This document shows, piece after piece, positions 55,748 through 59,824 of a stretch of DNA of 64,000 bases. Every line of letters starts with the position of its first letter. The stretch's first letter is position 1. Made by a program: the position numbers and the translations under genes. The notes beneath the pieces are model-generated. The model was not told the origin of the DNA and ran no database searches. It worked only from the letters and a program-made list of their open reading frames with translations. The DNA is from Escherichia coli (GTDB taxonomy: Bacteria; Pseudomonadota; Gammaproteobacteria; Enterobacterales; Enterobacteriaceae), in the NCBI RefSeq assembly GCF_041248615.1, contig NZ_CP158426.1; one strand, written 5' to 3'.

Positions 55748-56227
55748 TTACTTCGTTTTCTCGCAATCCAGAACTGTATTTACAATCATCTGATACCCCG
55801 TGCAGCGACAAAGATTTCCCGCCAGTCCGCGACGAATTTCCGTAATGGTTAATGGCTTCTCGCGTGGTTTCGCCAGCATTGCCGTGGTAGCCATAATCAG
55901 GCCAGGCGTACAAAACCCGCACTGCACTGCGCCGGATTTCGCATAAGCCTGCTGAACATGAGAAAGTTTTCCGCCTTTCGCTTCACCTTCCAGCGTGCGG
56001 ATCTCTTTTCCTTCAGCCCAGGCGGCAAGGTATAAGCAACTGTCTATTGCTGTGCCGTCGACCAACACCGTACAGGCACCACATTCACCCACGCAGCACC
56101 CTTGTTTGACACTTAGCAGTCCTTGTTCGCGGAGTAATTCCGAGAGCGGCGTGCCTGGTGCGGCGTGAAGCTGAAAAGGCATCCCGTTAATGGTGCATTC
56201 GATGGTAATTGTTTCGCTGTGATTCAT
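55748..56227 (-). CDS. xdhC: xanthine dehydrogenase Fe-S subunit (2Fe-2S)
   Basis: 159-aa ORF with ferredoxin-type cysteine clusters ([17 protein letters not shown]). Confidence 0.93.
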
Positions 56228-57102
56228 TGCAATTTTCCCCCCGCCGCGGCGACGGCTTCGCTAATCACTTTTTTGGTCATCGTCTGGATGAGATGCAGAC
56301 GAAACTCTTTACTGGCCCGCCATGAAGAACGCGGGGCGACATCTTGCAGGACAGATTCGCTGATAGCTTCCAGCGTTTGCAGGTTTAATGGCGCATTTTG
56401 TGCAGTCTGTTCGGCATGTTGGCAGCGAATCGGCGTTGGCGCGGCAACACCAAATGCCAGGCGTAATTCGCTGAAATTGCCGTTATCCAGTCGGCAATGT
56501 GCGGCGCAGCCAATCGTTGAAATATCCATTGCGTCGCGCATGGCATATTTAAAATGCGCGCTGCCCGCGTGTTCTTTCGGCTGTGGCGGAAAATGAAAGG
56601 CGACGAGGATTTCGTCATGCTCAAGAGACACTTTGCCCGGCCCGGTGTGAAAGCCATTAATCGGGACGAAACGAACACCGCGCGGGGAGTGGATCTCCAG
56701 TTTCGCGTCATAAATTAGCGTTGGCGTGGCAGAATCTGCGCTGGTGGCACCGTTGCAAATATTTCCACCGTAGGTAGCGACGTTACGGATCTGCGGTCCA
56801 GCAATGGACGTGGCCGCAGCACATAACGCCGGGAGATGACGTTGAGTTATAGGATCTTCTATTAGCTGGGTAAATGTCGTTGCAGAGCCGATACGTAGCG
56901 AGCCATCTTCCGCCAGCGTAATTCCCCGCAGCTCCGCCAGATTATGAATATCAACAATATGGCGATAACGGTCATTGTGATGGTGGAGCTGAATCAGTAC
57001 GTCAGTGCCACCGGCGAGCAGTTTGGCCTGCGGGTTGTCAGCCAGCAGGTTGATGGCATCGGCAAGGGTTGCTGCGCGATGGTAAGAAGCAAAATCAAAC
57101 AT
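56224..57102 (-). CDS. xdhB: xanthine dehydrogenase FAD-binding subunit
   Basis: 292-aa [37 protein letters not shown]... Confidence 0.93.
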
Positions 57103-57112
57103 GATGTTATCC

Positions 57113-59371
57113 TCAAATCAATCCTGCCAGATGGAACTCTTCATATAACCGTTTTGGCGTCAGCGGCAGTGTATTGATTGCAACACCGGTAGCCATCTTC
57201 ACCGCGTTACGAATAGCAGCGGCAACAGGAATTATTGGTGGCTCACCCAGTGACTTATGTCCGTATGCGGATTGCGGCTCATTGATTTCGACGAACGCGC
57301 TTTCCAGTTGTGGCAGATCCGGCATGGTCGGCATTTTGTAATCCAGCAGATTGGGGTTACGGACCACGCCGCTTTTAGCATCGATGATCATCTCTTCAAA
57401 TAGCGCCCAGCCAATGCCCATTCCCATTCCGCCGTGTACCTGACCTTCTGCCAGCAGTGGATTAAGAATATGCCCTGAATCATGAACGTTGAGGATGCGG
57501 TTGATGGTGACTTTGCACAGCGCAATATCGACCGTCAGATCAACAAAGGTACAGCCAAACGCCGGTGGGTTAGTGGTGGTTTTGATGGAGCTTTCAGCAG
57601 AGAGCTGCCCGCCGCGTTCAGGGTGGTAGAAAGCGTCCATCGCCAAATCTTTTAACGACATTAACGGCTCTTCCGGTCGTTCAACCAGCACGATATGGCC
57701 TTTTATCAGGGTCAGATTCATCGCTGACTGATGTAGCATGACTGCGGCGTGAGCGATGATTTTCTCTTTTAATAATAGTGCCGCACTGCGCAGCGCAGGC
57801 GCGGCAACATAGCTCTGGCGTGAGGCAAATGCGCCGGGATCGAACGGCGTAACGTCGGTATCTTGAGTTGAAATAACGCGAACGTCGCTGACCGGAACCC
57901 CCACGGTTTCTGCCACCATTTGCGAGAAGACGGTGTCGGCACCCTGACCGATTTCCGTCGCGCCGCTTTGCACGTTGATGGTTCCATCCTGATTCATCAG
58001 AAGGCGCGCGCCTGCTATTTCTACGCCGACAGGCCAGGTGTTAGAGGTGTAGCTAAAACAGGCGATGCCAACGCCGCGGCGCAAATTGCCTTGCTGGTTC
58101 TGGCATTCTGCACGGCGTTTTTCCCATTCAAAGATTTTCCGGCCTTTTTCAAGACACTCCGGCAACCCTGCGCTGTAAATACGTTTGCCCGTGAGCGGAT
58201 TAGCATCTCCTTCGCGGGCGGCGTTGCGTAAACGAATTTCAACAGGATCAATACCTAACGCTGTCGCGGCGTCATCAAGCATAGACTCAACGGCAAATAC
58301 GACTTGTGGCGCGCCATAACCACGCATCGCACCAGCCGAGGGGAGGTTGGTATAGCAGGTCTTTGAACTGTAAGCGTAGGCACAACGAGGATAAAGGTAA
58401 GCGACTTTATTCCCCCCCGCAGAAGCGATGGAGTGCCCGTGAGATGCATAAGCGCCGGTGTTAGACAGAACATCCAGACTATAACCTTTCAATGTTCCGT
58501 CGCGGTTCACGCCCATTTGCCCGTCAATGGTAAAAGCGTGGCGGGTACGGGTTGCGAGGAAACACTCTTCACGGCTAAGGGAAACTTTCACCGGAATGCC
58601 GCCAAGCTTGCTGGTCAGGAATGCCGCCATTGGCTCTTCCAGTACATCCTGTTTATTACCAAAACCGCCACCGACAAATGGTTTGATGACTCGTACGCAT
58701 GACCAGGGAATATCCAGCGCCTGACCAACCACGCGGCGAACAATGTGCGGGATCTGGGTGCTGGAAACGATGGTAATTCGCGAGTCATCCTCCATCCACG
58801 CCAGCGATGTTACGCTTTCCATGTGACAATGTTGAATAACGGGGGTCTGATAGTGCCCCTGTACCTGGTAGTCGGCGGCATCGATTGTTTGTTGGACATT
58901 ACCCGTCGACATCGTGCTTTGTTTCAGTAAATTGCCACCGTTATGGATTGGTGCAGCGTCTTCTGCCAGCGCCGCTTCTGGCGTGGTGATAACGGGTAAT
59001 TCTTGCCACTCAATGCTGACCAATTGCGCCGCTTTTTCTGCCGTGAGTTCATCGCGGGCCACGACGATGGCAACGGCGTCACCATGATGACGAACATGGC
59101 GAGTTAGCAGTGCGCGATCGGCGGTATCGCGCTTGTTTTCGTCAAGTGTCCAGGCATGCCCAGCTGTAGCGAATGGAATATCAGGCACATCTTCCCAGGT
59201 AAAAATCGCCAGTACGCCCGGCAAACTTCTGGCTTGTTCATCATTAATACTTACGGCATAACCATGTGCGATAGGGCTACGTACATATTTCGCATAACAC
59301 ATGCCCGCCATAACATAATCGTCAGTATATCGTGCCCGCCCGGTGACCTTAGCAATGGCATCGACGCGCAT
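57113..59371 (-). CDS. xdhA: xanthine dehydrogenase molybdenum-binding subunit
   Basis: ORF track 57113..59410; start chosen at MRVDAIAKVTGRARYTDDY (752 aa); an upstream in-frame ATG at 59410 with a stronger SD is an alternative. Confidence 0.9.
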   Translation of the reverse strand: MRVDAIAKVTGRARYTDDYVMAGMCYAKYVRSPIAHGYAVSINDEQARSLPGVLAIFTWEDVPDIPFATAGHAWTLDENKRDTADRALLTRHVRHHGDAVAIVVARDELTAEKAAQLVSIEWQELPVITTPEAALAEDAAPIHNGGNLLKQSTMSTGNVQQTIDAADYQVQGHYQTPVIQHCHMESVTSLAWMEDDSRITIVSSTQIPHIVRRVVGQALDIPWSCVRVIKPFVGGGFGNKQDVLEEPMAAFLTSKLGGIPVKVSLSREECFLATRTRHAFTIDGQMGVNRDGTLKGYSLDVLSNTGAYASHGHSIASAGGNKVAYLYPRCAYAYSSKTCYTNLPSAGAMRGYGAPQVVFAVESMLDDAATALGIDPVEIRLRNAAREGDANPLTGKRIYSAGLPECLEKGRKIFEWEKRRAECQNQQGNLRRGVGIACFSYTSNTWPVGVEIAGARLLMNQDGTINVQSGATEIGQGADTVFSQMVAETVGVPVSDVRVISTQDTDVTPFDPGAFASRQSYVAAPALRSAALLLKEKIIAHAAVMLHQSAMNLTLIKGHIVLVERPEEPLMSLKDLAMDAFYHPERGGQLSAESSIKTTTNPPAFGCTFVDLTVDIALCKVTINRILNVHDSGHILNPLLAEGQVHGGMGMGIGWALFEEMIIDAKSGVVRNPNLLDYKMPTMPDLPQLESAFVEINEPQSAYGHKSLGEPPIIPVAAAIRNAVKMATGVAINTLPLTPKRLYEEFHLAGLI

Positions 59372-59466
59372 GCATGATTCACCCGTAGCGGTTGCTTCCC
59401 GCGCTTCCATAGAAATCCCCTCGATTTGAACATTTGGTTCTTATGGCAAAGATTTAGTCTAAGCAG

Positions 59467-59481
59467 GCAAGATTTACGCCA
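59467..59481 (-). promoter_or_regulatory. candidate sigma-54 promoter for xdhABC
   Basis: minus strand TGGCGT-aaatc-TTGCC with GG-N10-GC spacing matching the -24/-12 consensus, ~45-85 nt upstream of the xdhA start. Confidence 0.45.
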
Positions 59482-59824
59482 GAAACGACGATAAGCGTTA
59501 GGGGAGGTAGGAAGTGTGATGACGTTAAAAAAACACAGATATGATACGAAACAGGACTCTGAATAGGGGCAGTGATACGTATCAATATGAGTGGCGATAA
59601 AATCAATGTGATAAATTGGGATTATTACGCATCAGGATGGGAAATAGGGTAAAAAGTCAGGAAGTTCGATACCTCTACAGCGAATATTTTGCTGATGATA
59701 CTTCCCTTTGCCAAATGAAATTAACCTCTTTCTCTATTACCACGTTTTTCCAGAAGCAAGAGATTGGGTATCAAGAGGCTGGCTGCTATGATAAGGCGTC
59801 TTGTTTTTTAAGCGAGGAAAGATT

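Follow-up and report, generated by a model that had tools for sequence, protein, structure and literature searches.

The window, a stretch of 64,000 nucleotides of Escherichia coli DNA, carries on its minus strand xdhA, which encodes the molybdenum-binding subunit of xanthine dehydrogenase and is directly followed by xdhB (FAD subunit, 56224..57102); in K-12 records the annotated order is xdhA-xdhB-xdhC, with xdhC encoding the Fe-S subunit. An E. coli strain deleted for xdhA fails to consume xanthine (PMC12507026). The xdhA region shows one mismatch in 2.7 kb relative to E. coli K-12 MG1655 (position 58066), and the window protein has Ile449 where the common K-12 sequence has Val449. The protein scores 1485.8 bits against the NCBIfam XdhA equivalog NF007426 (cut-off 916), residues 5-765 corresponding to profile positions 2-761 of 761; coverage by the NCBIfam XdhA equivalog models is residues 5-765 and 10-765. 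Three Pfam domains are recognized: PF01315 (Ald_Xan_dh_C, a/b hammerhead) at residues 23-139, PF02738 (MoCoBD_1) at 159-397 and PF20256 (MoCoBD_2) at 423-700. Two ATG codons in this frame, with ATG 59410 lying 13 codons 5′ of ATG 59371, are candidates for the start of the gene:

57113..59410, minus strand: xdhA, long form, 765 codons plus stop (2298 nt), xanthine dehydrogenase molybdenum-binding subunit; the protein opens MEAREATATGESCMRVDAIAKV
59408..59410, minus strand: Met1, an ATG proposed as the true start and found in 26/26 colinear orthologs
59372..59407, minus strand: codons 2-13, EAREATATGESC, the disputed extension, with coding-type variation in 26 orthologs
59381..59383, minus strand: codon 10, GGT (Gly10), a near-invariant residue at the N-terminus of xanthine oxidase-family Mo subunits
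59369..59371, minus strand: codon 14, ATG (Met14, MRVDAIAKV), the start of b2866 in NC_000913.3, read here as an internal Met

A stop codon lies 10 codons 5′ of ATG 59410 with no ATG, GTG or TTG in between, so a start 5′ of 59410 was ruled out for Escherichia.

Existing records are divided between the two starts. The K-12 MG1655 record (b2866 in NC_000913.3, NP_417342.1 / AAC75904.1) has the same gene, frame and stop as the window, but starts 39 nt downstream at Met14, giving a 752-aa protein that lacks residues 1-13, including the conserved Gly10; the UniRef entry is also the 752-aa form. In contrast, all seven E. coli records sampled from RefSeq/PGAP carry the 2298-nt CDS, and RefSeq XdhA (WP_000388150.1 / NF007426) is the same 765-aa product as in the window, starting at the ATG equivalent to 59410. 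Exact look-up with the MG1655 sequences placed the long protein on at least 1000 contigs, compared with 51 for the short one. The suggestion that xdhA is usually annotated short thus holds only for K-12 as curated and for UniRef, but not for the sampled PGAP records. The long start is already known: NCBI automatic annotation corrects the legacy error in other E. coli genomes. In E. coli K-12, 223 starts were revised from the 2006 to the 2014 record, and TetRP added about 150 candidates (PMC4909307); as in xdhA, an early annotation had chosen a start no more than 60 nt from an in-frame one with better support. In the supplements examined, xdhA itself is listed neither as revised nor as flagged by TetRP, probably because its sigma-54/YgeV-dependent operon is not expressed in standard cultures.

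No direct data on the start site or N-terminus of xdhA were found, because the gene is silent under standard laboratory conditions: the TetRP, TRAINSPOTTER N-terminomics and Giess et al. supplements examined hold no xdhA entry, and the INRI-seq tables give xdhA in vivo Ribo-RET values of 0. The INRI-seq templates begin 30 nt 5′ of the short start, which thereby leaves the ATG at −39 and its Shine-Dalgarno (SD) sequence outside them. The biochemical studies examined, on C. sporogenes XdhAC, E. coli XdhD or deletion mutants, did not characterize the N-terminus of E. coli XdhA.

To compare the ribosome-binding sites of the two ATG codons, SD strength was calculated as the best duplex with the 16S 3′ end, ACCUCCUUA:

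59417..59422, minus strand: upstream SD, GAGGGG, separated from ATG 59410 by the 6-nt spacer ATTTCT; −8.0 kcal/mol
59379..59384, minus strand: GGGTGA, an SD-like string before Met14 with a 7-nt spacer; −3.8 kcal/mol

These positions and sequences agree with the earlier note, which had called the upstream GAGGGG well placed and the GGGTGA before 59371 weak. Among 740 internal in-frame positions of xdhA, 1.8% have a duplex of −8.0 kcal/mol or better and 15.5% have one of −3.8 kcal/mol or better, so the upstream SD stands above background and the downstream string does not. ATG 59410 is accordingly preceded by the purine-rich anti-SD complement at about 5-9 nt that is canonical for SD-led starts, whereas Met14 lacks the above-background ribosome-binding site of its own that would mark a second functional start. 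In the predicted fold of the mRNA 5′ end, the unpaired probabilities of SD and AUG are 0.59 and 0.41 for the upstream site versus 0.25 and 0.17 for the downstream site. The difference in SD strength is found in all 26 colinear orthologs, in each of which the upstream SD is the stronger. Its equivalents (AAGGGG, AGGAGA, AGGGGG) are kept in all of them, with a mean of −7.9 kcal/mol, and the AGGGG of the upstream SD is invariant in alignment A2. The string before codon 14, which spans the final base of the Thr9 codon, the whole Gly10 codon and two bases into the Glu11 codon, drifts synonymously (AGGTGA, CGGTGA, CGGCGA, TGGCGA; mean −3.5 kcal/mol).

These results bear on the possibility that both AUG codons are used to produce two XdhA proteoforms of 765 and 752 aa, as in genes with genuine in-frame alternative starts. 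Such dual use would be consistent with retention of the Met14 ATG in 23 of the 26 colinear orthologs, with the marginal SD-like string at a 7-nt spacing from it, and with INRI-seq in vitro, in which isolated templates support initiation at several weak ATGs inside the 5′ region of xdhA (+60, +76 and +127 relative to the short start). Against it, the string is at background level, is built from conserved Gly and Glu codons and drifts as those codons permit, and the Met14 site is predicted to be the more structured of the two. Met14 also lies only 39 nt 3′ of a strong start, and ribosomes elongating from there would cover it. Production of two proteoforms is thus very improbable, although minor internal initiation at Met14 could occur in E. 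coli.

Conservation of the 13 extra codons in other enterobacteria, which the earlier note had named as a check, was examined in the 26 colinear orthologs from about 10 genera (Escherichia, Citrobacter, Cedecea, Kluyvera, Klebsiella indica, Trabulsiella, Atlantibacter, Yokenella and Pluralibacter), a set that includes many close relatives (21 distinct 39-nt sequences, 13 distinct peptides). Two loci, L033 and L034, have interrupted matches. The comparison favors the longer N-terminus: the ATG is present throughout, and codons 2-13 contain neither stops nor indels in any of the 26. Column variability across these codons is 0.09, 0.07 and 0.38 for the first, second and third positions, respectively, and the entropy at position 3 (1.19) exceeds that at positions 1 and 2 (0.33) in this frame only (Mann-Whitney p=4.6e-5); the codon differences comprise 94 synonymous and 53 nonsynonymous changes. 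In contrast, the DNA just 5′ of ATG 59410 is uniformly variable, contains indels and lacks periodicity (p=0.95).

This pattern is difficult to reconcile with the K-12 annotation being right, that is, with initiation at AUG 59371 only and an upstream ATG and SD that form a conserved non-initiating leader feature or lie off the mRNA. The 752-aa form is the one given by UniRef and by MG1655 as curated, and no experiment contradicts it, but a non-coding leader would not give third-position bias and zero indels over 39 nt beside an indel-rich leader. Moreover, an in-frame AUG behind an SD of −8 kcal/mol, with no stop before Met14, would yield the long protein whenever it was used.

Codon 14 itself is not conserved as a start codon, as would be expected if it served as a second functional start. 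It is CTG in two and TTG in one of the 26 colinear orthologs, CTG or TTG (Leu) being the codons in Trabulsiella; outside this set it is TTG or TTA in Buttiauxella, and both Hafnia and Enterobacillus have AAA (Lys). The proteins of Buttiauxella, Hafnia and Enterobacillus begin further upstream, with MSERMGNTPLGLPCLRVD, MSLGSPLKRVD and MSTGLSAVGSPFKRVD, behind good SDs of −6.0 to −9.1 kcal/mol. As some orthologs have no start codon at position 14, the upstream start is obligatory there, which counts against both the short start alone and the paired proteoforms.

The N-terminal residues encoded by the extension belong to a motif shared across the protein family. Each of 16 close XdhA homologs, which share the N-terminus MAIGKSVxRVD, has the Gly10 residue; these sequences were found by a search with the first 100 residues that returned mostly gene fragments, only the more distant partial XdhA sequences being informative. 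In the wider family (32-57% identity), 112 of 121 members have Gly in the Gly10 column, within the motif [VI]-G-x-x-x-x-R/K-x-D, and the Met14 column is Pro in 69/121. No N-terminus among 120 homologs falls on or beyond the Met14 column, and the conserved Gly is preceded by a median of 7 residues in homologs and by 9 in E. coli, with the proviso that homolog N-termini in large databases are themselves gene-caller predictions. Homologs of solved structure align from XdhA residues 8-10 (range across alignments 8-13). The N-terminal motif is common to XdhA and 4-hydroxybenzoyl-CoA reductase alpha (1rm6_A), quinoline 2-oxidoreductase (1t3q_B), PaoC (5g5h_C) and bovine XDH (1fo4_A), although the identity of these proteins to XdhA is only about 30-45%; in 1t3q_B, siGtSvlRreD aligns with atGeScmRvDa of XdhA. 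The PDB copy searched contains no E. coli XdhA structure. The AlphaFold model has a mean pLDDT of 97.2, with residues 1-4 below 50, four more below 90 and 757 at or above 90, counts that suggest that residues from about 9 to 13, including Gly10, are ordered. A 752-aa product would therefore lack the near-invariant glycine together with about five residues that appear to be ordered, further reducing the case for a second proteoform, and initiation at AUG 59371 alone would leave the conserved Gly10 motif untranslated.

The promoter region bears on whether the upstream ATG lies on the transcript:

59466..59482, minus strand: sigma-54 promoter CTGGCGTAAATCTTGCC (−24 GG / −12 GC), 5′ of both ATG codons
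59411..59455, minus strand: predicted 5′ leader of the xdhABC mRNA, 45 nt, located by reference to the sigma-54 −12 element

PMC4591121 reports an identical 17-mer with a sigma-54 ChIP-seq peak, located 84 nt 5′ of the short xdhA start as annotated, which corresponds to 45 nt before the long start. The pattern TGGCGT-N5-TTGCY is present 5′ of xdhA in 31/31 orthologs examined, where the predicted leader is 28-59 nt long, with indels between genera. Promoter geometry suggests a transcription start near 59455. A sigma-70 scan of the intergenic region gave one weak match, at chance level; the sigma-54 promoter accounts for the leader. The leader gave no Rfam match at E<=1. The position of the ChIP-supported promoter 5′ of both ATG codons would put both on the mRNA and adds to the observations against exclusive use of AUG 59371, which is highly improbable.

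Together, the conservation of the ATG and SD in orthologs, the coding-type substitution, the loss of codon 14 as a start codon and the presence of Gly10 support the proposal of an XdhA N-terminus 13 residues longer. Very probably, xdhA is translated from AUG 59410 to give 765 aa, with ATG 59371 encoding internal Met14, and the 752-aa K-12 start is a legacy choice that was never revised. On this reading, RNA polymerase with sigma-54 would start xdhABC transcription near 59455, the promoter being presumably activated by YgeV, which is encoded beside xdhC. The anti-SD of the 30S subunit would then pair with GAGGGG (59422-59417) within the 45-nt leader and bring the AUG, 6 nt further on, into the P site; we infer both this ribosome usage in vivo and the activation by YgeV. 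Residues 1-8 or so of XdhA would be a short flexible tail that differs from lineage to lineage, and the conserved fold would be entered from about residue 9, opening with the family motif [V/I/T]-G-x-S/P-x-x-R-x-D. A further proposal, that enterobacterial XdhA has a lineage-specific acidic tail (residues 1-8 or so, MEAREATA) before the conserved Gly motif, that low-level initiation at Met14 also occurs in E. coli, and that either the choice of start or the tail tunes XdhB/XdhC assembly, cofactor insertion or stability through two functionally distinct proteoforms, is speculative and highly improbable.

The significance of the longer XdhA is practical rather than conceptual, and it introduces no new biological principle. 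Most proteomics databases, clone collections and models for E. coli derive from the K-12 reference and UniRef/UniProt-style entries, and the 752-aa form used there is without 13 residues, among them a near-invariant glycine and some five that are predicted to belong to the ordered fold. Constructs that follow the 752-aa annotation would be truncated at the N-terminus, with possible defects in folding or assembly; the diagnostic peptide EATATGESCMR would be unidentifiable in proteomics searches against the 752-aa entry; and the likely real xdhA start is missing from annotation-based in vitro libraries such as that of INRI-seq. XdhABC is receiving renewed attention in gut bacterial purine and urate metabolism (PMC12507026; bioRxiv 10.1101/2025.04.24.650524), and correction of the b2866 reference would therefore be useful.

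The xdhA reading frame on the minus strand of the window contains two candidate start codons, an upstream ATG that yields a 765-aa protein and a second ATG, Met14 of that protein, that yields the 752-aa form of the K-12 annotation. The gene is identified as xdhA by its score against NCBIfam NF007426 (1485.8 bits, cut-off 916), by the presence of all three Pfam domains expected for XdhA and by xdhB directly downstream; the region was found in 5353 of 5426 complete E. coli genomes. Over 2.7 kb the window differs from E. coli K-12 MG1655 at a single base (58066, minus strand, xdhA codon 449), where A in place of G gives Ile449 instead of Val449; at this base, at least, its sequence is thus distinct from that of MG1655. 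Exact copies of the window's 765-aa protein are recorded on 40 contigs, whereas the count for the MG1655-type long form is at least 1000.

Features of the xdhA start region
57113..59410, minus strand: xdhA open reading frame, 765 codons, starting MEAREATATGESCMRVDAIAKV
59482-59466, minus strand: sigma-54 -24/-12 element CTGGCGTAAATCTTGCC, upstream of xdhA
59422-59417, minus strand: upstream Shine-Dalgarno sequence (SD) GAGGGG, 6 nt before the ATG at 59410
59410-59408, minus strand: upstream ATG, 6-nt spacer after GAGGGG
59384-59379, minus strand: GGGTGA before Met14, composed of the final Thr9 base, the whole Gly10 codon and the first two Glu11 bases
59371-59369, minus strand: second in-frame ATG (Met14), 7-nt spacer after GGGTGA

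The earlier note had credited the upstream ATG with the stronger ribosome-binding site, and this is borne out by the calculated pairing with the 16S 3' end (−8.0 kcal/mol, versus −3.8 kcal/mol for the downstream site). Among all internal in-frame positions of xdhA, 15.5% reach −3.8 kcal/mol and 1.8% reach −8.0 kcal/mol; as GGGTGA is made of Thr9, Gly10 and Glu11 codon bases, it reads as a by-product of coding. The upstream site is also the more accessible in the folded 5' end of the predicted mRNA, with unpaired probabilities for SD/AUG of 0.59/0.41, against 0.25/0.17 downstream. No in-frame start candidate lies further upstream, making 59410 the most upstream start possible.

Taking one genome per species, an ortholog scan gave 30 xdhA loci from enterobacteria, 25 of them colinear through the extension (codons 2-13, 59372..59407); with the window these make 26 sequences, many of them closely related, with 21 different 39-nt sequences and 13 different peptides among them. 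Two loci with interrupted matches (L033 and L034) do not affect the conclusions. In all 26 sequences the upstream codon is ATG and the upstream SD (AAGGGG, GAGGGG, AGGAGA or AGGGGG) outscores the downstream site (means −7.9 versus −3.5 kcal/mol). Minor-allele fractions at codon positions 1/2/3 are 0.09/0.07/0.38 in the extension; codons 14-39 give 0.02/0.01/0.34, and upstream DNA stays flat at ~0.5. The third-position excess in codons 2-13 is significant in frame (p = 4.6e-5) but not in the other two frames (p > 0.9) or in upstream DNA (p = 0.95). The extension is free of stops and indels; the adjacent upstream leader carries 11-14-nt indels between genera. Judged by these substitution patterns, codons 2-13 evolve in a coding-type manner, and the conservation of the extra codons in other enterobacteria, which the earlier note had proposed as a check, is confirmed. 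Position 14 itself varies: codon 14 is CTG at two Trabulsiella loci and TTG at a third, and the equivalent residue is Leu (TTG/TTA) in Buttiauxella and Lys (AAA) in Hafnia and Enterobacillus. In the latter three genera (Buttiauxella, Hafnia, Enterobacillus) the gene starts at a more upstream site with a good SD ahead of it (MSERMGNTPLGLPCLRVD, MSLGSPLKRVD, MSTGLSAVGSPFKRVD).

The same picture extends to the wider family. XdhA homologs from further afield, Deltaproteobacteria and Clostridia among them (46-67% identity to the window sequence), mostly start M-A-I-G-K-S-V-x-R-V-D; Gly10 (long-form numbering) is kept in 16 of 16, and none outside the enterobacteria has Met at position 14 in this comparison. 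When 1.84 billion representatives were searched exhaustively, the best 150 matches mostly aligned from query residues 4-10. Aligning the query with 120 full-length members (32-57% identity) puts Gly in the Gly10 column in 112 of 121 sequences, V or I at position 9 in 111 and Pro at position 14 in 69. Residues preceding Gly10 are present in every homolog (median 7; 9 in the E. coli long form), and none of the 120 full-length members starts at or after the Met14 column. Two NCBIfam XdhA models begin at residues 5 and 10, homologs of solved structure align from residues 8-10, and siGtSvlRreD of quinoline 2-oxidoreductase aligns with atGeScmRvDa of XdhA. Without this motif the 752-aa form would stand alone. 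AlphaFold2 with the 121-sequence alignment returned a mean pLDDT of 97.2 and a pTM of 0.95: residues 1-4 fall below 50 and four more below 90, the other 757 reach at least 90, and the first ten-residue block averages 62. The four below 90 are most likely residues 5-8, in which case the modeled chain would be ordered from around residue 9, residues 1-8 would be a flexible tail differing between lineages, and the fold would include residues 9-13 (TGESC).

The sigma-54 element matches exactly a 17-mer that Bonocora et al. 2015 (PMC4591121) list for xdhA together with a ChIP-seq peak for sigma-54, at a distance of 84 nt from the short start of the annotation. Its position predicts that transcription begins around 59455, which leaves a leader of 45 nt ahead of the ATG at 59410 and completes a normal promoter–leader–SD–AUG gene model for the long form. 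TGGCGT-N5-TTGCY lies upstream of xdhA in 31 of 31 enterobacterial orthologs, with predicted leaders to the upstream start of 28-59 nt; no Rfam match was found in the xdhA leader. As the predicted mRNA includes both ATGs, the promoter alone does not discriminate between them. The gene for a sigma-54 activator, ygeV, lies just past xdhC, and xdhABC belongs to a putative YgeV iModulon that is seldom active under laboratory conditions (PMC10602906), which accounts for the scarcity of expression data.

Separately, an out-of-frame 60-codon ORF (59251-59433, minus strand), with its ATG at 59433 inside the leader, overlaps the xdhA start region; it lacks an SD, its ATG is kept in Escherichia and Citrobacter only, and it is probably meaningless. 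In E. coli DETEC-P61 (NZ_CP116152.1) an annotated IS1 family transposase splits the match to 59100-59700 in two; this IS1 insertion, in the promoter or 5' region of xdhA, probably inactivates or rewires xdhABC expression. In E. coli WP5-S18-ESBL-08 (L003, 1373-1549) PGAP places a hypothetical protein of 58 aa (WP_001329734.1) in the actS–xdhA intergenic region on the actS strand, with no counterpart annotated in K-12 records. Upstream of glyU/actS in K-12 strain CP178206 (L001, 1-1813), IS2 and ygeQ remnants adjoin tRNA-Gly (glyU), where L003 and another E. coli locus (L002) carry yqeG or a glycoside hydrolase gene, marking this flank as a variable insertion hotspot.

The published sources searched gave no direct experimental evidence for either start: the TetRP, TRAINSPOTTER and Giess et al. 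supplements contain no xdhA entries, and recent purine-degradation papers contain no characterization of the E. coli XdhA N-terminus. INRI-seq templates extend just 30 nt ahead of the annotated start and so omit the −39 ATG and its SD. The xdhA peaks listed for that in vitro assay are at internal ATGs, +60, +76 and +127 nt from 59371 (MG1655 3000404, 3000420 and 3000471; one in frame, two out of frame), the strongest being +127, with 34 CPM in 5/5 replicates. All three score zero in Ribo-RET in vivo and are likely artefacts of isolated short templates.

The curated MG1655 record (b2866) gives 2259 nt and 752 aa, whereas all seven sampled RefSeq PGAP E. coli genomes (95-100% identity to the window) give 2298 nt and 765 aa, with a start equivalent to 59410. 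In a large protein collection the 752-aa sequence is on 51 contigs (AAC75904.1, other K-12 records, a UniRef entry) and the 765-aa sequence, titled "MULTISPECIES ... [Enterobacteriaceae]", on at least 1000. The "usually annotated" of the earlier note therefore holds for the curated K-12 and UniRef entries but not for current automatic annotation; the ambiguity is one of a legacy record against PGAP, and had already been noticed. RefSeq PGAP and NCBIfam already settle on the long start, and the short one is an ordinary residual start-site error of a kind common in K-12, where 223 start sites were changed from 2006 to 2014 (PMC4909307). Together, the SD contrast, ortholog conservation, coding-type evolution and the family Gly10 motif support the longer N-terminus. 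It is highly probable that translation physiologically begins at the ATG at 59410, with Met14 an internal residue; minor dual initiation is improbable, and exclusive use of the short start at 59371 is very improbable. In practice, b2866 and the UniProt-style entry should be corrected, the 765-aa form used for expression and the peptide EATATGESCMR included in proteomic searches.
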